19,701 nucleotides of DNA, taken from assembly GCA_037446635.1 (NCBI GenBank), contig JBBIIG010000071.1, positions 1 through 19,701 on the forward strand, in the 5' to 3' direction. The notes below the pieces were generated by a model. It was given only the letters and a program-made list of their open reading frames with translations. It was not told where the DNA came from and did not search any database. Source of the DNA: a bacterium. Lineage in GTDB: Bacteria > Zhuqueibacterota > Zhuqueibacteria > Oceanimicrobiales > Oceanimicrobiaceae. This document shows positions 1 to 19,701 of the stretch, one piece after another. The stretch's first letter is position 1. Every line of letters starts with the position of its first letter. Both the position numbers and the translations under genes were made by a program.

Positions 1-1
1 G

Positions 2-328
2 GCGTCGAGAATATTCAACGATCTCATCGCCACTACTTTTACCGAGGCCTGGAACCAAAGCAAGCAGAGCGGCGTGGGACTGGCCGAGAGTTTTACGATT
101 TGGAAGCTGTTTCTTTTTTCCATTGCTTACCTTTACGCCATCTATCGCATTCCGGCGACCACCGGCTGGCTCATCGATCACTCCTTTGGCTTCGCTTCGG
201 GGATGATCGTCGCTAAGACCGGAATGGCCACGGCCAAGATTCGCGCGATCACCAGCAGCGCGGCCGGTTTTGCGGGCTCCGGCCGGGCGGCGATCGCGCG
301 CGGCTTTGGTAGAATTTTCGGACGCTAA
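2..328 (+). CDS. C-terminal part of a TraJ/VirB6-like inner-membrane T4SS protein (5' end outside the window)
   Basis: Frame +2 is open from base 2. A hydrophobic helix (LFLFSIAYLYAIY) is followed by RIPATTGWLI, resembling the 'VPxxxxWII' end of Bacteroides CTn TraJ, then a Gly/Ala-rich tail. It lies directly upstream of traK/M/N-like genes. Confidence 0.55.
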   Translation, partial: ASRIFNDLIATTFTEAWNQSKQSGVGLAESFTIWKLFLFSIAYLYAIYRIPATTGWLIDHSFGFASGMIVAKTGMATAKIRAITSSAAGFAGSGRAAIARGFGRIFGR

Positions 329-367
329 AATGGCAGCTTCCATCTAAAATTGTTGAGGCTTTAACCC

Positions 368-1030
368 ATGAACGCGAAACAAAAAATCGATATTGATCAG
401 CAGGTCGATGGCAAGCTCTCTGGCGTGGTGTGGCGCGGCTTTGTCGGCAACAAAAAGAAAGAAAATTTTCTCCGCAACGTCGTCATTGTTTTGCTCATCA
501 CCAACTTGTTGAGCTGGTTCATCCCTTCGCCTTTTAGTAAATCCCAACAATCGGTTTATGTCATTGACGCCGGCCTGCCGAAGGTTGCCACGTTAGTGGA
601 CGAGGGAACGCGCGTGGACGAGCAGATAAGGTACTTCGTCCGGCAGTGGATCCGCTTGCTGCTGGAGGTGCGCAGTGAAACCTATCAGCAGCAGCGCGGC
701 GGCCTCAAAACCGTCTCCACCAACGAACTGATGAAACGGGTGCTGGCGGCGGAGAGCGGCAACCCGCTTCTCAAAGAAGTGATCCAAACGGAGATGATGG
801 GCATCCGGCTTATCGACGTGCGCATCGAGTCGATTGAGCGGCAGGGGGGAACCATCAAGACGGTCTTTACCGATGTCATTCAAGTGACGCTTCCCGATGG
901 CAGCACCGAGCGCTACGAAACCCAGCACTTCGCAGAAATGGTCCCGGTCAGCTACAGCCTCAATGGACTGGGGCTCATCATGACCAACGTTGATAACCTT
1001 TGGAGATTGGAAAGGAAGGTGCAAGAATGA
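368..1030 (+). CDS. traK: TraK/VirB8-like T4SS protein (single TM followed by a periplasmic domain)
   Basis: 220 aa. One N-proximal TM (NVVIVLLITNLLSWFI), then VYVIDAG and IRYFVRQWIRLL, as in VirB8/TraK. Its stop overlaps the next start (ATGA, 1027-1030). Confidence 0.6.
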   Translation: MNAKQKIDIDQQVDGKLSGVVWRGFVGNKKKENFLRNVVIVLLITNLLSWFIPSPFSKSQQSVYVIDAGLPKVATLVDEGTRVDEQIRYFVRQWIRLLLEVRSETYQQQRGGLKTVSTNELMKRVLAAESGNPLLKEVIQTEMMGIRLIDVRIESIERQGGTIKTVFTDVIQVTLPDGSTERYETQHFAEMVPVSYSLNGLGLIMTNVDNLWRLERKVQE

Positions 1031-2079
1031 ACCTCTCGAAATTTAACATCGATCTGGGGCGCAGCAAAAACCTGGTGCGCTGGGTGGTTGCGGGCGCCAT
1101 TGTCGTGTTTCTGGTGGCGGTGTTTGTTTCTTCTTATATAAAATATAAAACTGCCAGCACAACTTCGACCTATCAGCCCGCTTATAGCGAGGACGAGGGC
1201 TTCCAAAAGCTGTACCAGGATTTAACCCGGGATAAGCCGCAGGCAACCCAGCAGAAAAAAGCCTTGGCTGAGGCCACAACGCCAGCGAGTGGGCGGGCCG
1301 AAAAGGTTAGCCCGGCCACCGTTGACGAGTGGGTGAAACGCGGCGGCTGGAAGAATACCCCCGAGTACTGCGATTCGCTGCGGGTGCAGTACGCCATGCT
1401 TGCCTTTGCATTTGGCAAACTGGTGGAGGAGAACCAGGCTTTGAAGAGCGGGGCTCCGGTCAAAAAGGCCAGCAGCGCTGCTAAAACCACTTCCTCGGCG
1501 CCGGCCCGCAGCTCCAGCCCGGCTCCCAGCAGCGGCTTCGATTTTACCCAGTACTTCAACCGCAGCGCCGGCAGCGCCGAACTCACCACTGACAACGGCG
1601 GCGCCGGCGGAGTGAGCGCTTTTTCGGAAGCGGCCTTTGTTTGGGCGACTCTCACGCTGCCGCAAAAACAGCAAGTGCGCACCGAGTCGCTTATCACCTT
1701 CGACGTGGATCAAACCTTCACCGTTGGCGGAGTGGCGGTTCCGCCGGGATCGAAAGTTTCCGGCATAGCGCAGGTCAGCCAGGGAGTGGGGCGTGTTTAC
1801 GTCCGCCTCACGCGGGTGGACACGCCATCGCAAACGATGACCGTGGAAGGCGAGGTCTATTCCCTCGATCGCTCGCGCGGAATCAACGTTTTCGTTCACG
1901 GGGAGAGCGCATTGGCCGAAGGAGTCAAGCGCGAGTTAACCGACTGGGTTGGGCTGTTTGACCCCTCCCGCTCCGGAGTCAGCCGCAGCGTCTTGCAGGA
2001 TACGGACGTGGGGCGAGAATTTTTCGCCACTCTGGACGCCGGCACGATGGTGCTTGCCAAGATTCGTCCCGGGCGCTAA
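1027..2079 (+). CDS. traM: TraM/VirB10-like T4SS core protein (Bacteroides conjugative-transposon type)
   Basis: The ATG at 1027 is coupled to the traK stop and is preferred over the TTG at 1000. N-terminal TM, coiled segment and Ser/Ala/Pro linker. The C-terminal beta domain (QQVRTESLITF...VGGVAVPPGSKVSGIAQ...RVYVRLTRV...VEGEVYSLDRSRGINV) matches the pattern of the CTn TraM C-domain. Confidence 0.7.
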   Translation: MNLSKFNIDLGRSKNLVRWVVAGAIVVFLVAVFVSSYIKYKTASTTSTYQPAYSEDEGFQKLYQDLTRDKPQATQQKKALAEATTPASGRAEKVSPATVDEWVKRGGWKNTPEYCDSLRVQYAMLAFAFGKLVEENQALKSGAPVKKASSAAKTTSSAPARSSSPAPSSGFDFTQYFNRSAGSAELTTDNGGAGGVSAFSEAAFVWATLTLPQKQQVRTESLITFDVDQTFTVGGVAVPPGSKVSGIAQVSQGVGRVYVRLTRVDTPSQTMTVEGEVYSLDRSRGINVFVHGESALAEGVKRELTDWVGLFDPSRSGVSRSVLQDTDVGREFFATLDAGTMVLAKIRPGR

Positions 2080-2127
2080 ACGGCGGGCGGCCTGTTCACG
2101 CCTGCTTCATCAGATTTAAGGAGATTT

Positions 2128-3000
2128 ATGAGAAATACACGCTCAATTATGACTATCATCGTGCTGGGTCTGCTTGAGAATCTTTCCGCGCAAAAATCGC
2201 AAAGCGTCGATGTGATCACTCCCGAAATGCACCTCAAAATCGGCACCCTCTCTTCGGTGGTGCTGCCGGAGCCCTATTTGACGGTTCGGCCCTCGGTGCC
2301 GGTGGTGGAGCTCAAAGACGTGGTGGGCCGCAGCGGCACGGTTTTCACCCTGCAGCCGACGGTCGCCAACCGGGTGAAAACCAACCTTTGGATTTACACT
2401 CAGAACTACGAATTTAACGTCGCGCTTTATCTCAACTATAGTGAAAAAACCACCGACCTGCTGGACCTGGCGAAATTAGTGGGCGCGCCCCGTTTCAAAG
2501 GCAAACCAGAATCGGAGGCGGCGAGCCCAGAGCCGGCCGGCAGCAACGGCGCCCCCAACCGCGAGTCCATCGCGTTTTTGCGCGAATTGATTTTGGCAAA
2601 ACCGCAATTGCTCAAGCCAAACAAACATGCGCCGTCGCAGGTCAAAAACCGGGTGGTGCTGGCGGTGGACCACGTGCAGCCGCACGGCGACAAATTTGTG
2701 TTCGTGCTTTCGTTATGGAACAAATCGAGCGTGCCTTATACCATTTCCTCGCTGAACCTGACTTATAAAGAGGAGGGCGGCGTGGCGTTGATAAACCGCC
2801 GCACGTCAAAATTGATTCCCGTGCCCTCCGTGTATGCGCCGCTGTTTTCAAAACGCACCGTCAGTCCGGGAGAGCGGGCGTTCATTTTTTACATCACCAG
2901 CCGCTTATCGCCCCAGGATAAGGGGAAATACAATGTCGTGCTGCTGGAACAGAGCGGAACGCGCAACTTCGATTTCGACGTGCCATCGTATATCGAATAA
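2128..3000 (+). CDS. traN: TraN/VirB9-like (DUF4138-like) periplasmic/outer-membrane core protein
   Basis: SD AAGGAG upstream and a signal-peptide-like N-terminus. Two beta-rich domains are separated by a linker. The motifs KTNLWIYT, FVLSLWNKSSVPY, TVSPGERAFIFY and VVLLEQSGTRN resemble TraN. It follows traM. Confidence 0.65.
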   Translation: MRNTRSIMTIIVLGLLENLSAQKSQSVDVITPEMHLKIGTLSSVVLPEPYLTVRPSVPVVELKDVVGRSGTVFTLQPTVANRVKTNLWIYTQNYEFNVALYLNYSEKTTDLLDLAKLVGAPRFKGKPESEAASPEPAGSNGAPNRESIAFLRELILAKPQLLKPNKHAPSQVKNRVVLAVDHVQPHGDKFVFVLSLWNKSSVPYTISSLNLTYKEEGGVALINRRTSKLIPVPSVYAPLFSKRTVSPGERAFIFYITSRLSPQDKGKYNVVLLEQSGTRNFDFDVPSYIE

Positions 3001-13377: not shown

Positions 13378-13659
13378 ATATCGAACTCCGTAGAAGTCGA
13401 GGCGGTTCGCGATGTGCTTCGACGAATCAATCAGGCTTGGCTAAGCAATCGTCCCCGTGAGCTTCAGCAGCTATTTCACAAAAATATCGTCATGGTCCTG
13501 CCGGGTTTTTCGGGCCGGGTGGAAGGCAAAGATGCGTTGATTGCGAGCTTCGAGGAGTTTTGTGAGAATGGCGTCGTCCACCAGTTTTCGGAAAAGGAAA
13601 GTCAGGTGGAGGTAGTAGGCGCCACAGCCGTGGCGAGCTTTTTGTTTGAAGTATGTTAA
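13378..13659 (+). pseudogene. Truncated NTF2/SnoaL-like (DUF4440-type) gene
   Basis: INQAW...LFHKNIVMVLPG..RVEGKDALIASF...QVEVVGATAVASF is NTF2-like but stops before the final strands. The frame opens at ATA (13378) with no SD. Confidence 0.55.
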
Positions 13660-13839: not shown

Positions 13840-13928
13840 GAGGATACTCAGACTGTTTCGATAGAGCCGAATCGCTTCTGCCATTCGGCTTTTGTTTTTG
13901 TACTTTTACTAAAATCGTTCTTTCTCAA
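13840..13928 (+). repeat. Conserved inter-cassette spacer, copy A
   Basis: Shares the ordered blocks GAG(G/C)ATACT, GACTG(A)TTTC, CCGAA, CCAT(T)CGGCTTTT, CTAAAA and TCGTTCTTTCTCAA with 19397-19490. Confidence 0.6.
13865..13899 (+). terminator. Rho-independent terminator
   Basis: AGCCGAAT (13865-13872) pairs with ATTCGGCT (13883-13890), followed by TTTGTTTTT. Confidence 0.65.
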
Positions 13929-15545
13929 TTGCGCCGGGTATTTTACACTGAGCGGGGCAAGCACTATTTGCTGGTGGGCGTGCCGTACAGTTGGATAAAG
14001 ACGGCGCCGGAGGGGGAGGTGGTGATTGACCCGACGGTTTCGGTTGCTGCCAGCGAGGACGTGTGGCTAGAAAATACCTCCAACTTTGACGGCCACAGCG
14101 CGGGATTACTCATCGGTAAAGCCAGTTGTTGCTCCAAAAAGCGCACCATCATCAAGTTTAACCTTGCAGGTTCAGGCATTCCGAGTTCGGCGACAGTGCT
14201 GAATGCGCAGATGAAGCTGTACTACTACACCGCAGTGCGGGTAGGGACAACGGCGTGGGTAGATCGCTGGGTGCAGGCGCATCAGATTTTAGTGAACTGG
14301 AATCAGTCGCAGGCGACGCGGGACAATCGGCTCACCGGGACGCTGTGGAATGTGCAGTATGTGGGGCTGAACGATATCGATGCGAAGTCGGCTTACGAGA
14401 GCACGGTGCTGTTTCAGAGCGGCCAGTACCCGACGTGGAAGAGTTGGGACCTCACCACACTTACCGAGAGATGGTTGGAAGGGACGGCAGCGAACTACGG
14501 CGTGGTGCTCTGGGCTACGAATGAAACGACGGACGGCTACGACCTGCGCTTCCGAGCTTCGGAATACGCGACCACGACTGAGCGGCCGTATTTGCAGGTG
14601 ACCTATTCCACCAGTTCGAAGACGGTGTATTTTCTGAAGGATCACCTGGGCAGTGTTCGGGCGACGGTGGATAACACGGGCGCAGTGGTGGGGTATGATG
14701 ATTACGACCCGTGGGGATACATTCTGGCGAATCGCAGTCTGGCTACACCGTGGAGTTCAGTACAGGGGACGGCGAAGAACAAGTTTACGAGCAAGGAGTG
14801 GGATGATGAGTTTGGGGTGAATTGGAATTACTTTGGGGCCAGGTATTATGATCCGCAGATTGGGAGGTGGATGAGTGTGGATCCGGCTTTTTATAGATGG
14901 AGTCCAGAGCGTTATTTTAAAAGTGGACTTTTTAGTATCTCTCCATATGTGTATGTGCGGAATAATCCATTAAATCGATTTGATCCAGACGGACAAAAAG
15001 ATGTATCTGCTATGTTTAAGGCCGGCCTTAAAACTATTGGCGGTGGACTGACTTATGCCGGTGGGTGGGCACTTCAACTAAAGGGGGTTGCGGTAACGGT
15101 AGCTACTGCAGGTGGATTTTCGCCCGTTGGAGTGGGAATGGTTTTAGGTGGAGAAGGTTTGAAACTTGCAGGGGCGTTCTCATTTTTCACGGGGATCGCG
15201 GACTTTGCATTCGCAGCAAGTGTACCGTATGGAACTGATGCTGAAGTATTAGGAAACTTAACATATGAGGTAGCAAAAGAATTGGGGTTAGGGGGGACAA
15301 AGCTTGAAATTGTTGGTCTCCTTGAAGATATATTAACCGGTGGCAAGGACATTGGCAAACTGGCTGTTGATGGTAAAACAACAAAGTTAGTGGAGGCGCT
15401 TATTTATAACACGCAGATAACAGAAGATGTTCGAGCGATTCTGGAGGAGAGGTATCAGGAGCTAAAAGAAGCTGAAGAAACCAGCAAAGACAATGAAAAG
15501 GTCCAGGATACCTCCGATAAGGAAGAAGAAAAAAGGGAAAAGTGA
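13929..15545 (+). CDS. Orphan (5'-truncated) toxin cassette 1: DNRLRE-type domain + RHS-associated core + Gly-rich hydrophobic C-terminal domain
   Basis: DNRLRE-like segment VVIDPT...RTIIKF...AQMKLY...WDLT..NYGVVL...RPYLQVTY. RHS core motifs KDHLGSVR, DYDPWG, KFTSKEWD, YFGARYYDPQIGRWMSVDP and YVRNNPLNRFDPDG. The variable tip starts at 14994. The TTG start has no SD. Confidence 0.85.
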   Translation: MRRVFYTERGKHYLLVGVPYSWIKTAPEGEVVIDPTVSVAASEDVWLENTSNFDGHSAGLLIGKASCCSKKRTIIKFNLAGSGIPSSATVLNAQMKLYYYTAVRVGTTAWVDRWVQAHQILVNWNQSQATRDNRLTGTLWNVQYVGLNDIDAKSAYESTVLFQSGQYPTWKSWDLTTLTERWLEGTAANYGVVLWATNETTDGYDLRFRASEYATTTERPYLQVTYSTSSKTVYFLKDHLGSVRATVDNTGAVVGYDDYDPWGYILANRSLATPWSSVQGTAKNKFTSKEWDDEFGVNWNYFGARYYDPQIGRWMSVDPAFYRWSPERYFKSGLFSISPYVYVRNNPLNRFDPDGQKDVSAMFKAGLKTIGGGLTYAGGWALQLKGVAVTVATAGGFSPVGVGMVLGGEGLKLAGAFSFFTGIADFAFAASVPYGTDAEVLGNLTYEVAKELGLGGTKLEIVGLLEDILTGGKDIGKLAVDGKTTKLVEALIYNTQITEDVRAILEERYQELKEAEETSKDNEKVQDTSDKEEEKREK

Positions 15546-15577
15546 TTTATTGAATAACAGTCAATACGGAGGTGTTC

Positions 15578-15982
15578 ATGATTTTTCGAAGAGTATTATC
15601 ACTACTTTTTGATTTTCTATCGTCTTTGTTGCCTGCATATGGTGCGCATATAGCTGGTGTTAATTTGTTCTATGCTTTCCTTTTTTTCTATACCATAACA
15701 CAGATCGGTGAATTATTTCTTTTAAAGGGACGAACTGCCGGAATGGTTGTTTTTCGGATTTATCCAAGAAGCGTACAGAACGGTAAACCAAGCCTGGTGA
15801 AGCTGGCGCTCTATCATATAGCGTTATCGGTTTTAGTTTTCAATATGTTAAATCCATCTTACAACGTTTTGTTGGAATCAATTGTACCAATTTTACTGTT
15901 TTTCCCCTTTTATGATACACAGAGGTACAATTCCGCGATCGACTTGTTATTCCGAATTCATTGGGTATCCGAGGCCGCGTAG
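15578..15982 (+). CDS. RDD-family membrane protein, putative immunity protein for cassette 1
   Basis: GGAGG at 15568-15572 supports ATG 15578. RDD-like motifs FRRVLSLLFD and KGRTAGMVVFRI. AT-rich and directly after the toxin tip. Confidence 0.65.
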   Translation: MIFRRVLSLLFDFLSSLLPAYGAHIAGVNLFYAFLFFYTITQIGELFLLKGRTAGMVVFRIYPRSVQNGKPSLVKLALYHIALSVLVFNMLNPSYNVLLESIVPILLFFPFYDTQRYNSAIDLLFRIHWVSEAA

Positions 15983-15984
15983 GA

Positions 15985-17636
15985 TTTCCCTACAGTGTTT
16001 TCCCACAGGATTTCGCCTTCGCCGAGTCGGACACGGCGCAAGAGCAGCAGCAGGTGGTGCGGCGAGTGTTTTACACCGAGCGCGGCAAGCACTATCTTTT
16101 GGTGGGGGTACCGTATACGTGGTTGAAAACTGCGCCCGCCGGTGAGCTGGTAATCGACCCGACGGTCTCGGTGGCCACCAGCGAGGATGTCTGGCTGGAG
16201 GATACCAGCAATAAAAACGGCAGCGGCAGCACTACGGGTCTGATTGTTGGCAAGACCGCCAGTTACCCCAAGAAGCGCACCATTATCAAGTTTAACCTCG
16301 CGGGTTCAGGGATACCGGCCACGGCCACGGTGCTGAACGCGCAGATGAAGTTGTATTATTACACCGCGGTGCGGGTAGGTACGACGGCGTGGGTAGACCG
16401 CTGGTTGCAGGCGCACCAGATTCTGGTGAACTGGAATCAGGCACAGGCGACGCGGGACAATCGACTCACGGGTACGCCGTGGAATGTGCAGTACGTTGGG
16501 TTGAATGATATTGATGCGAAATCCACGTACGAGAGCACGGTGCTGTTTCAAAGCGGCCAGTACCCCACGTGGAAGGTGTGGGACTTGACGGCGCTGACGC
16601 AGAAGTGGGTGAATGGCTCGGCAACCAACTACGGCGTGGTGTTATGGGCCACCAACGAAGGGACCAACGGCTACGACCTGCGTTTTCGAGCCTCGGAATA
16701 TGCGACGACGAGTGAACGACCCTATTTGCAAGTGACGTATTCAACCAGCTCGAAGACGGTGTATTTTCTGAAGGATTACCTGGGGAGTGTTCGTGCAATG
16801 GTGGACAACACGGGAGCAGTGGTGGGCTATGATGATTACGACCCGTGGGGCTACATTTTGGCAAACCGCAGTCTGGCGACGCCGTGGAGTTCGGTACAGG
16901 GCACAGCGAAGAACAAGTTCACCGGCAAGGAGTGGGATGATGACTTTGGCGTGAATTGGTATGATTTCCCTGCACGTGATTACGATCCGCACAGATTGGG
17001 CGGTGGTTGTCGGTGGACAGGTTTGCGGATAAATATCCTTCTATGACTCCTTACCACTATGTTTTGAATAATCCTTTAAGATTTACGGATCTCACAGGAG
17101 ATACTGTGAATGTAGACCCAAAGTTATTGGAACCTGTGGTCTACACCGAGGGAGAGTCCAAGGGTCAACAAAAGAAAGTTGAAGACATGACGCCAGAAGA
17201 AAGGCAGCGGTATTTCTTTCAACAATGGTGGTCAGAGGAAGGAGAAATTGTTAATGAACTATTTGGGATAGGGGGGAAATACGAATCAACAAATATTAAT
17301 TTTAAATTAGGCTATAAACCTTTGGGATTTTGGAAGAACATACTAACCCTTCCGGGTTTGAAGAACCAATATTTTGGTCAGACAGCATGGGGCAGACATG
17401 GTACTAAGGAAGTTGACTTATTTACCGGATCGCGAGCAATAACTCCCTCATTTGGGATAAATGAGCTGAGTATATTTCTTTATTTTAGTCCAGAACGTGC
17501 TAGAAGTGAGACTGCACCTCATGAGTGGAGTCATGTAAAAATAATTTTTGATCTTATCAAAAGAGGTCAAACTGTTCCGACAGGTATGATTCAACATGAG
17601 TTGATGAGAAGAGGAATGATCCCCCCAATAAGATAA
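15985..17636 (+). pseudogene. Orphan toxin cassette 2 (DNRLRE-type domain + RHS core + HExxH tip), split by a 2-bp frameshift
   Basis: Paralogous to cassette 1. ORFs 15961-17046 and 17007-17636 join into DPQIGRWLSVDRF if an extra CA at 16990-16993 is removed. The tip starts at 17100, after NNPLRFTDLTG, and contains HEWSH. Confidence 0.85.
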
Positions 17637-17647
17637 GGAGTTAAAAA

Positions 17648-17950
17648 ATGGCAGCATATATACTACTCTCGATTTTTATCATTTTTTTAATTTTTAGCAG
17701 GATATGCTTGAAAGCAAAGAAATATTATAAGAGGCTTAATTTTATCAGTTTCATTGTATTAAATATTTTCACTGTTATTTGGTTTATTATCCAATACAAT
17801 TTTGCATACAAGGAGTACGGCGTAGCTGAACTTGAGGCTCCAATTAGTATAATTCCAAACATAGTATTATCAATAATTGGAGTTGCGATTCTTTGTATAG
17901 TGTATAATTTTTTATATGTGATTTTAAATTTATCGAGTGAAAGAACTTGA
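17648..17950 (+). CDS. Small 3-TM membrane protein, putative immunity protein for cassette 2
   Basis: AAGGAG SD, 100 aa, very AT-rich and hydrophobic. Paralogous to 19066-19368. Confidence 0.7.
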   Translation: MAAYILLSIFIIFLIFSRICLKAKKYYKRLNFISFIVLNIFTVIWFIIQYNFAYKEYGVAELEAPISIIPNIVLSIIGVAILCIVYNFLYVILNLSSERT

Positions 17951-17971
17951 CCTTGCCCTTGAATCGAGAAG

Positions 17972-19048
17972 CTGGCGCTGACACAGTACTGGGTGGACAC
18001 GCAGGATGTCTGGCCGTCCACCAACAACGGGGTGGTTCTGTGGGCGACAAACGAGGATGTCAACGGCTACGACCTGCGCTTCCGTTCCTCGGAATATGCG
18101 ACGACGACTGAGCGGCCGTATTTGCAGGTGACCTACTCGACCAGTTCGAAGACGGTGTATTTTCTGAAGGATCATCTGGGAAGTGTTCGCGCAACGGTGG
18201 ACAACACGGGAGCAGTGGTAGGCTATGATGATTACGACCCGTGGGGCTACATTTTAGCGGGCCGCAGTTTAGCCACGCCGTGGAGTTCGGTACAGGGGAC
18301 GGCGAAGAATAAGTTTACGGGCAAGGAGTGGGATGATGAGTTTGGGGTGAATTGGTTTCATTTTGATGCAAGACCGTACGATCCACAGATAGGGAGGTTT
18401 TTGGGTGTGGATCGTTTTGCAGACAAATATCCATCCTGGACGCCATATCATTACGCATTAAACAACCCTATTCTTTTTACAGATTTAACCGGCGATACAG
18501 TTGACGTAGATCCGAAACTGTTAGCGCCTGTGATTTATAGTGAAGGTGAAAAGCAAGGTCAACAAAAAAGAATAGAGGATATGACGCCAGAAGAAAGACA
18601 GCGGTATTTCTTTCAACAATGGTGGAGTGAAAATAGAGAATCGGTTGAGAGCCTGTTTGGAATTGGAGGTAAGTATGAGACAACTAATATCAATTTCAGG
18701 TTAGGAACCAAACCTTTGACAACGGGTGAAAAAATTTTAGAGTTTCTAACTCCACCAAGATTGCGCGAGCCACAATTTGGCCAAACGACTTTTGGGATGC
18801 ACGTTACTCCTGAAGCTAAGTTGTTTACTGGCACCAGAGATATTAATCCAAATTTTGGCATAGAACAATTGACAATGTTCATTTATTTCAATCCCAACCT
18901 CAGCCGAATGTTTAACGAAACTCCTGCACATGAATGGAAACACGTGGCAATAATTTTTAATGCAGTGCTGAGAGGACAAGTTGTACCTTCTGGACTAAAA
19001 CAGCATCAATTTATCTACGGTGGTGGCGTAATACCTCCTATCAAGTAA
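17972..19048 (+). CDS. Orphan (5'-truncated) toxin cassette 3: end of DNRLRE-type domain + RHS core + HExxH tip
   Basis: Homology begins near LALTQYWV (17972); first GTG at 17993. Motifs KDHLGSVR, KFTGKEWD, ARPYDPQIGRF and YALNNPILFTDLTG. The tip starts at 18494 and contains HEWKH. Confidence 0.85.
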   Translation: MALTQYWVDTQDVWPSTNNGVVLWATNEDVNGYDLRFRSSEYATTTERPYLQVTYSTSSKTVYFLKDHLGSVRATVDNTGAVVGYDDYDPWGYILAGRSLATPWSSVQGTAKNKFTGKEWDDEFGVNWFHFDARPYDPQIGRFLGVDRFADKYPSWTPYHYALNNPILFTDLTGDTVDVDPKLLAPVIYSEGEKQGQQKRIEDMTPEERQRYFFQQWWSENRESVESLFGIGGKYETTNINFRLGTKPLTTGEKILEFLTPPRLREPQFGQTTFGMHVTPEAKLFTGTRDINPNFGIEQLTMFIYFNPNLSRMFNETPAHEWKHVAIIFNAVLRGQVVPSGLKQHQFIYGGGVIPPIK

Positions 19049-19065
19049 CAACTCGGAGTGGAGAT

Positions 19066-19368
19066 ATGATATACCCTATACTTATTGGATTAACAATATT
19101 CTTCATAGCTGGAAGCATGTTTTTTCGAGAACGAAAATTCTTTAAAAAATCACACTTTTTTGTCTTTATCGTTTTCAATTTGATCGTTGCTGCTTACTTT
19201 GTCCTGCAGTACACATATTCGAGTCCCAGATTGATGGTGTTAACTTTCGATGAGTTGATCCGAGTGATTCCAGGATACTTTCTCGAAAATATGAAAGTCA
19301 TTATAATCCAGGTACTGTTTAATTTTACATATTTTATTTTTCACGCACGAAAAAAGTTAACATTTTAG
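19066..19368 (+). CDS. Small 3-TM membrane protein, putative immunity protein for cassette 3
   Basis: GGAG upstream, 100 aa. Shares FIVxN, FxxQY, IxxIP and NFxYxI with 17648-17950. Confidence 0.7.
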   Translation: MIYPILIGLTIFFIAGSMFFRERKFFKKSHFFVFIVFNLIVAAYFVLQYTYSSPRLMVLTFDELIRVIPGYFLENMKVIIIQVLFNFTYFIFHARKKLTF

Positions 19369-19396
19369 ATTCTGCAATGATAGGTAATCCTAATCA

Positions 19397-19490
19397 GAGC
19401 ATACTGGTTGACTGATTTCAAATCCGAAAGGCCATTGAAAGGCTATCCCATCGGCTTTTCATGTTTTTCTAAAAGCTCGTTCTTTCTCAA
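19397..19490 (+). repeat. Conserved inter-cassette spacer, copy B
   Basis: Similar to 13840-13928 and ends in the same TCGTTCTTTCTCAA. Confidence 0.6.
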
Positions 19491-19513
19491 AAATCTGAAG
19501 ACAGAAAATCCAA

Positions 19514-19701
19514 AGCACGCCGTTGTTCCAGCAAGGCCAGTACCCGACGTGGAAGAGCTGGGACTTGACGGCGCTGACGCAGAATTGGGTGAGCGGCTCG
19601 GCAACCAACTACGGCGTGGTGCTGTGGGCCACCAACGAAGGCACCGACGGCTACGACCTGCGTTTTCGAGCCTCGGAATATGCGACGACGAGTGAACGAC
19701 C
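19514..19701 (+). pseudogene. Start of orphan toxin cassette 4 (partial DNRLRE-type domain, runs off the window)
   Basis: Translates as STPLFQQGQYPTWKSWDLTALTQNWVSGSATNYGVVLWATNEGTDGYDLRFRASEYATTSER. An in-frame TGA lies upstream at 19496-19498. Confidence 0.85.

Follow-up and report, generated by a model that had tools for sequence, protein, structure and literature searches.

The window analyzed here, a stretch of 19,701 nucleotides that makes up the whole of contig C71 in the source genome G000 (4.64 Mb, 110 contigs, 97% complete), is filled from position 13929 to the contig end by four paralogous cassettes of an RHS polymorphic toxin. Based on the gene arrangement in relatives, the array probably consists of headless orphan tip-immunity cassettes of a split RHS family. 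In this family, neighbouring but distinct genes encode the shell and the core-tip part, and the resulting chains, after predicted Sec export, likely come together as a single cage.

Shell and core-tip parts are encoded by separate genes

The parent of the cassettes (hereafter gene B) is found intact in KSB1 and Calditrichota, where it encodes 790-880 amino acids (aa) comprising a predicted signal peptide, a beta-sandwich N-domain of ~290 aa, DNRLRE, RHS core and a variable tip, and no shell. In a search among longer proteins, at least 34 matches (among 120 of 125 listed) cover at least 98% of the DNRLRE-core query; they have a length of 624-876 aa, with none longer up to 2000 aa. Two of the full-cover matches are named KSB1 and Calditrichaeota, and the named contigs of family loci include KSB1. 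Full-length members begin with a hydrophobic leader, each tip is followed by a small gene, and in relatives orphan cassettes are located behind gene B.

The shell lies in a gene of its own (hereafter gene A), which encodes a hydrophobic leader and a YD shell of ~1400-2200 aa, carries DUF6443 and RHS repeats and ends 3-4 profile positions before the core begins. For example, at L052, L048, L148, L149, L167 and L175 the parent gene is preceded, at a distance of a few hundred bases, by a large YD/DUF6443 gene with a conserved motif at its end. Among all loci with an intact N-domain start, 29/42 gene B starts are preceded by a core-less shell open reading frame (ORF) on the same strand, 28 of these 29 within 1 kb. 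Thus, the full-length parent with its domain order and the separate core-less YD-shell gene, both of which the sequence-only reading of the window had suggested looking for, were found. The best 28 homologs of the shell end contain no core (0/28), and 26 of them end within 12 residues of one motif, the other two being shorter fragments. Six separate genomes of two families carry the subtype seen in the window together with its shell. Single-chain relatives, in turn, read through the junction: in the 62 of 120 matches examined, 20 proteins continue into the core, some with an insert in the junction loop, which marks this position as an exposed loop.

The cut between the chains moves along the RHS protein

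The pieces of the split family tile a single-chain RHS profile, built from the last 717 positions of 12 single-chain relatives. The chain is cut at five different places, and two- and three-gene forms are found. In the window subtype the shell reaches 601-602 and gene B takes up the profile at 605-606, as do window cassettes 1 and 3; the cuts of the other forms are located near 298, 364, 563 and 675. In the early subtype (L154, L157, L162, L171) the shell ends at 296-299 and gene B carries ~230 aa more shell, while a shell ending at 363 (L182) and a piece covering 365-602 (L177) come from different genomes. The three-gene subtype (L039, L153, L158, L166) shows a shell end at 561-564 and a third gene (leader-core-tip) starting at 605-612. 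Its middle gene encodes leader, N-domain and DNRLRE and ends in a short YD-like hairpin motif, recognized by eye and not scored by the profile, and each of the three genes has a hydrophobic leader. L199 has two short genes in which a leader is followed by profile positions from 674-677 onwards. These leader-plus-tip genes (L199:4262-7691), which begin at the last 45 core residues, lie inside the secretion operon and represent minimal toxin cartridges.

When the best 150 N-domain matches were taken as clusters at 50% identity, 18, 14 and 11 fell into the three main subtypes, one had a gap of 561 aa between DNRLRE and core, the longest observed, and 106 were fragments or unrelated; these classes were assigned automatically, with at least one cluster misfiled each way. 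A whole shell between DNRLRE and core occurred in 0 of the 150.

A further arrangement is seen in a single-contig genome (G041; L039, L040, L186, L187) with two secretion operons, each followed by a core-less shell, and only one N-domain gene. Here, the hairpin chain might also serve the second shell in trans.

Domains of the parent protein

A structural model of one gene B protein (P0004) reached a predicted local distance difference test score (pLDDT) of 85-95 for the two N-terminal domains and 30-49 for the core region, and the tip was poor (alignment of 20 sequences). The DNRLRE domain matches 8wab (Z 16.9, root mean square deviation (rmsd) 3.1, 170 aligned residues) and 7vbo (Z 15.1, rmsd 2.9, 169 aligned), so that its predicted structure corresponds to a CBM96-like fold akin to these glycan-binding modules. 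The N-domain resembles galactose-mutarotase-like beta-sandwiches (Z 11-12, rmsd ~4, ~200 aligned), a shared fold that shows no function. Copies of it, often accompanied by a DNRLRE-like region, are also found towards the C-terminal end of large peptidase/PKD surface proteins that have no relation to RHS (P0354-P0385); the N-domain is therefore a mobile surface module. The accessible part of PMC12704120 describes a similar region of Streptococcus suis WapA as the cell-wall-binding part.

The N-domain was detected in 29/167 genomes of the window's phylum and in 6/86 genomes of the phylum around a Calditrichota locus; five Calditrichota genomes reached via the loci contained none. In an N-domain tree of 50 rows (built by a quick method, with SH-aLRT as the sole support measure), at least two changes on starred branches are required for the DNRLRE-core form, which is suggestive of a repeated origin. 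Variants of gene B with a shortened N-domain and a degenerate DNRLRE before the core were observed at L033:2-2161, L026:12210-14042 and L032.

Organization of the window array

All features of the array lie on the forward (+) strand. In line with the sequence-only reading, four tandem cassettes with differing 5' truncation were recovered, homology to the parent gene beginning at 13929, ~16000, ~17975 and ~19505. In cassettes 1-3 DNRLRE runs directly into the RHS core across a gap of 3-5 aa with no YD repeats at the junction, as had been proposed. The identity of both domains is backed by NCBIfam matches above cut-off: NF033679 (DNRLRE; cut-off 34 bits) in cassette 1 with 75 bits and cassette 2 with 82 bits, and TIGR03696 (RHS-associated core) in cassettes 1 and 3. 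The NF033679 matches and the carbohydrate-binding-module-like fold of the parent domain also bear out the DNRLRE-like nature of the N-terminal segment. The final DxxG of the DPxG-type motif is kept at all three core-tip junctions.

Orphan cassette 1 (13929-15545) retains the last ~40 aa of the N-domain, has no signal peptide and continues with DNRLRE (14073-14603), a core ending in DPDG (14604-14993) and a glycine-rich tip (14991-15545). It is followed by predicted immunity gene 1 (15572-15982), an RDD-like membrane protein of 136 aa; as for the other two small genes, its role is deduced from position. Cassette 2 (16000-17636) contains an N-domain remnant, DNRLRE (16186-16737), a core whose frame breaks near 16990, and a tip in a separate ORF (17007-17636) with the HExxH tip region at 17100-17636; predicted immunity gene 2 (17648-17950; 100 aa, three hydrophobic segments, GC 0.27) lies behind it. 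Cassette 3 (17975-19048) retains just the last third of DNRLRE, followed by a core (18134-18493), an HExxH tip (18494-19048) that is 60% identical to tip 2, and predicted immunity gene 3 (19066-19368; 100 aa, 28% identical to gene 2, E 2e-12). After a terminator-like hairpin (19436-19461) and a copy of a short DNA motif (19477-19490), cassette 4 (19505-19701) comprises the C-terminal part of DNRLRE, cut off where the contig stops. The residues that come next stand at the start of contig C66, where the array ends in a truncated, tipless core, so that C71 and C66 likely join, with C66:1-290 as the continuation of cassette 4.

Consequently, none of the cassettes is complete, in contrast to the three complete ones assumed before: in all four, the signal peptide is missing and the N-domain is mostly or entirely gone; cassette 2 is, in addition, frameshifted. 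The described AT-richness was confirmed, with a GC content of 0.40-0.45 in the tips and 0.27-0.38 in the small genes compared to 0.51-0.55 in the shared parts. Likewise, differences in the shared parts are mostly synonymous, the ratio of nonsynonymous to synonymous substitution rates (dN/dS) being 0.03-0.35 in 9/9 overlapping cassette pairs. Selection on the fusion had been read from this pattern; since the cassettes are orphans, the low ratios reflect selection that acted on their parents.

At its other end (1-3000) the window carries conjugative transposon genes (TraM PF12508 at 1000-2079, TraN-like at 2128-3000), and TraG/TraJ-like genes are located at the end of contig C6 of the same genome. 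In a relative (L053), an intact gene B lies directly after a traJ-like gene, which suggests carriage on conjugative transposon-type elements. A short DUF4440/SnoaL-like ORF, apparently truncated, is found just 5' of the array (13414-13659).

Tips and predicted immunity genes

With tips 2 and 3 being 60% identical and both carrying HExxH, the window has two tip types, not three. Homologs of tip 3 are found on one single-chain RHS protein and two other carriers, with HExxH kept in 3/3. Tips 2 and 3 are likely zinc peptidases; Atlas leads to zincins score only 0.80-0.83. Tip 1 is glycine-rich, contains no helix above the hydropathy cut-off and is likely membrane-acting. Predicted immunity gene 1 gave no Pfam match; its Atlas matches score 0.92-0.96, with RDD in 84% of the members of match 3. 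The predicted membrane location of the immunity proteins suggests envelope targets for the tips. Tips 1 and 3 and all three small genes have open frames. One of the tip-3 homologs (P0239, L169) resides on a protein named Caldithrix abyssi RHS core protein, which has an ILEI domain inserted inside its core. The locus with the Calditrichota match to tip 3 (L190-L191) contains fragments only over 31 kb.

A conserved DNA motif at cassette heads

A short DNA motif, which codes for IVLSQ inside the N-domain of intact parents, stands directly before cassette 1 (13915-13928), after a hairpin and a T-rich tract. In the window clade, the V-L-S codons of KEEIVLSQ are nearly fixed as T-ending codons (26/27, 27/27 and 26/29, compared with codon usages of 0.26, 0.10 and 0.10, respectively). 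Of the 150 codon columns, 14 others have one codon at 0.9 or more, and these end in C or G. Native copies show inverted 6-base arms around a 7-base spacer. Out of its native place, the motif was present within one mismatch at 8/83 candidate orphan starts, including window cassettes 1 and 4, against a background of 24/3000 windows with native copies included. It was also seen at L024, L034, L037, L052 and L032; at orphan heads, the sequence then skips to a later portion of the gene. It is possible that the motif serves as a recombination or regulatory site. A scan for sigma-70 promoters remained at chance level (10 promoter-like sites vs 9.3 expected), and a role as antisense promoter was rejected, as no -10 box is kept at the window copies (judged by eye).

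The source genome probably lacks shell and parent

In the source genome, neither a shell nor an intact N-domain nor a further RHS core was found by tblastn, TIGR01643, a shell query and family profiles over 88,408 six-frame ORFs. TIGR01643 gave one match under cut-off (E 0.33), and two weak matches of one shell query were rejected because they hit unrelated secreted proteins via an inserted region. Parent and shell are thus likely absent from this genome, and the array is a remnant: with gene A and the head of gene B lost, it cannot make an exported toxin. Our best reading of these sequence comparisons is a decaying, headless tip/immunity reservoir and recombination stock. By analogy to Salmonella, the array may also confer immunity or act as self-expressed toxin-antitoxin pairs.

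The genome further encodes a secreted protein of 6371 aa that matches DNRLRE at least six times and has a sorting-like tail at its C-terminus (C23:40893-60005); more DNRLRE proteins are encoded on C4, C7, C51, C28 and C39. Other secretin/pilin clusters are located on C10, C36 and C66.

A putative secretion operon is linked to two subtypes

Genes for a GspE/PilB ATPase, secretin, GspF, prepilin-type proteins, an A24 peptidase and a sigma-54 activator adjoin 12/21 gene B starts of the early and three-gene subtypes; the operon was also found beside shells or core-tip genes in L040, L197, L198, L199 and L201. One operon-specific gene, here labelled GspK-like (no Pfam or NCBIfam match), is present in 19/167 genomes, 14 of which are among the 29 with the N-domain; these genomes include kin, so the counts are not independent. 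For 3 of the 19, the range read contained no RHS gene. Where genomes lack the RHS family, a large secreted protein that weakly matches M36 peptidase and glycosidase comes after the operon (L193:16948-19899).

Proposed mechanism and alternative explanations

In the accessible part of PMC8636562, the RHS core is described as an aspartyl protease that is embedded in the end of the barrel as its plug, the tip lying inside. In the split family, the chains would cross the inner membrane unfolded by predicted Sec export, and the cage is likely assembled outside the cytoplasm from these separately exported parts. There, the core of gene B would plug the open end of shell A by beta-strand completion, placing the tip inside the cage, where self-cleavage at the DPxG aspartyl motif would free it. 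The pair of N-domain and DNRLRE would hang outside as a glycan-binding surface anchor or target-binding module. The folded cage would then be secreted and the tip released by self-cleavage; the folded complex may leave via a type II secretion system (T2SS)-like secretin system, less probably so in the window subtype. More tentatively, and with somewhat less than even confidence, we propose a class of multi-subunit RHS toxins in KSB1 and Calditrichota, whose shell, cap and core-tip would be exported separately, close in the periplasm like an AB holotoxin and leave folded through a dedicated type II-like secretin system. One shell could load interchangeable small tip cartridges in trans, some starting as late as the last 45 core residues, and the DNA site within the N-domain would help to generate cassettes.

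Several observations weigh against the split-cage reading. An upstream shell is missing at 13/42 gene B starts, of which two have <350 bases upstream and several represent broken genes. Within the window subtype this applies to 9/21 starts, including intact genes in L054, L057 and L069, and L054 has no shell at the FtsK site where L048 has one. Metagenome loci stem largely from one assembly (32/39) and are hence not independent. Leaders, present at 39/42 gene B starts, were judged as signal peptides by hydropathy and eye, and toxicity and immunity are assigned from position and motifs. Regarding export, no secretion operon was found near any of the 21 window-subtype starts, the source genome has no linked GspK-like gene, and the linked operon is not separable from a type IV pilus system by profile score.

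The intact gene B copies without adjacent shell at L054, L057 and L069 and the 9/21 starts would fit a shell-less toxin, in which N-domain and DNRLRE bind the target, the core is only self-cleaving and the upstream shell is leftover or optional. We consider this improbable: the shell stops are conserved at the exactly complementary position, the cut shifts in step in both genes across the subtypes, and in L022, one of the shell-less genome cases, gene B is broken. The low pLDDT of the core modelled in a lone chain points in the same direction, weakly given the small alignment. Among the three architectures that the sequence-only reading had offered, the split shell supplied in trans is thus favored by the 29/42 starts and the tiling; a domain inserted into a single chain finds no support, none of the best 150 N-domain matches holding N-domain, DNRLRE, whole shell and core together; and a shell-less form may apply to the 7-9 parents without adjacent shell. 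It is hardly credible that the split itself is artefactual and that assembly errors or pseudogenisation have disrupted a single long RHS gene. In favor of an artefact, all sources are metagenome assemblies or uncultured genomes, and frameshifts are common in family loci (L048 shell, L022, L064). However, ~500 aa of leader, N-domain and DNRLRE stand between the two RHS pieces, one stop motif recurs in 26/28 proteins and in six separate genomes of two families, and a single-contig genome holds the three-gene form (L039); this explanation is largely refuted already.

A different question is what the orphans do. Instead of idle recombination stock, the window cassettes could be kept as toxin-antitoxin modules expressed from internal starts. 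Internal promoters drive orphan tip-immunity pairs of Salmonella rhs, according to the accessible part of PMC7043789; the conserved DNA motif heads cassettes 1 and 4, and the open frames of tips 1 and 3 and the small genes would be in agreement. However, promoter-like sites in the window do not exceed chance, cassette 4 has the motif yet seemingly no tip, and such expression leaves the DNRLRE-core junction unexplained. We therefore regard self-expression as unlikely, and it would be compatible with the split-shell origin.

Comparison with known systems

The family shares with RHS polymorphic toxins a DPxG-type core, a variable tip with a small gene and the presence of orphans; a shell in the chain of the core was not found. 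WapA of Gram-positive bacteria likewise has a Sec signal, DNRLRE in its N-terminal region, an Rhs core, a polymorphic tip and truncated orphans, as far as described in the available text of PMC12704120. In contrast, WapA has the shell placed between DNRLRE and core within a single chain of ~3000 aa, whereas the family described here belongs to diderm bacteria and has its shell in a separate upstream gene. T6SS (type VI secretion system) Rhs effectors, such as Rhs1, RhsA and Tse5, also contain a core plug with DPxG motif and a tip (PMC8636562, seen in part). Unlike these, the family chains gave no PAAR or VgrG match in Pfam or NCBIfam scans, carry Sec leaders and have a split shell. Tse5 was the only PDB sequence match of a single-chain relative, and a weak one (E 0.004), so the junction was not placed on a solved structure.

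Similar to family shells, signal-peptide RHS toxins of Bacteroidota and relatives feature DUF6443 and RHS repeats, and single-chain relatives appeared in the same search. In Table 1 of Zhang et al. 2012 (PMC3482391, seen in part), the 'T2SS/Sec' class is given no signature neighbouring genes, whereas a secretin operon adjoins the family genes in two subtypes. Apibacter Rhs genes are instead linked to T9SS (type IX secretion system) cargo genes, according to the accessible part of PMC8125069. Bacterial teneurin-like proteins resemble the family in their Sec-exported YD shell, polymorphic tip and immunity gene but are single-chain and unsplit, with FN-plug and NHL domains (PMC13018210, likewise seen in part).

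Two open questions in the field are the folding of an RHS cage around the toxin it carries and the passage of Sec-exported RHS proteins across the outer membrane. From the natural cuts at five positions it can be seen which loops accept a break in the chain, and loading becomes testable with small, separately expressed chains. A toxin class so far assigned to Sec export by default would gain a concrete export route through a linked secretin operon, and the split RHS family reveals a putative competition system in little-studied, mostly uncultured phyla. In the literature searched, which left most subscription journals outside its coverage and was partly seen in extract, no description of a split RHS cage architecture was found.

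The nearest precedent is the Tc toxin pair TcB-TcC, whose second chain carries much of the barrel and which works with TcA. No TcA-like gene was present in the family loci read, no genome-wide TcA search having been made, and three scanned family shells gave no SpvB or TcdB Pfam match. The family differs in having up to five cut positions, the latest in the core itself, a hydrophobic leader on each chain, and N-domain and DNRLRE on the toxin chain. As in TcB-TcC, where the YD shell is formed from two polypeptides with toxin and aspartyl autoprotease on the second (available part of PMC8636562), its shell is genetically divided between polypeptides, and the pieces tile a single-chain RHS profile.

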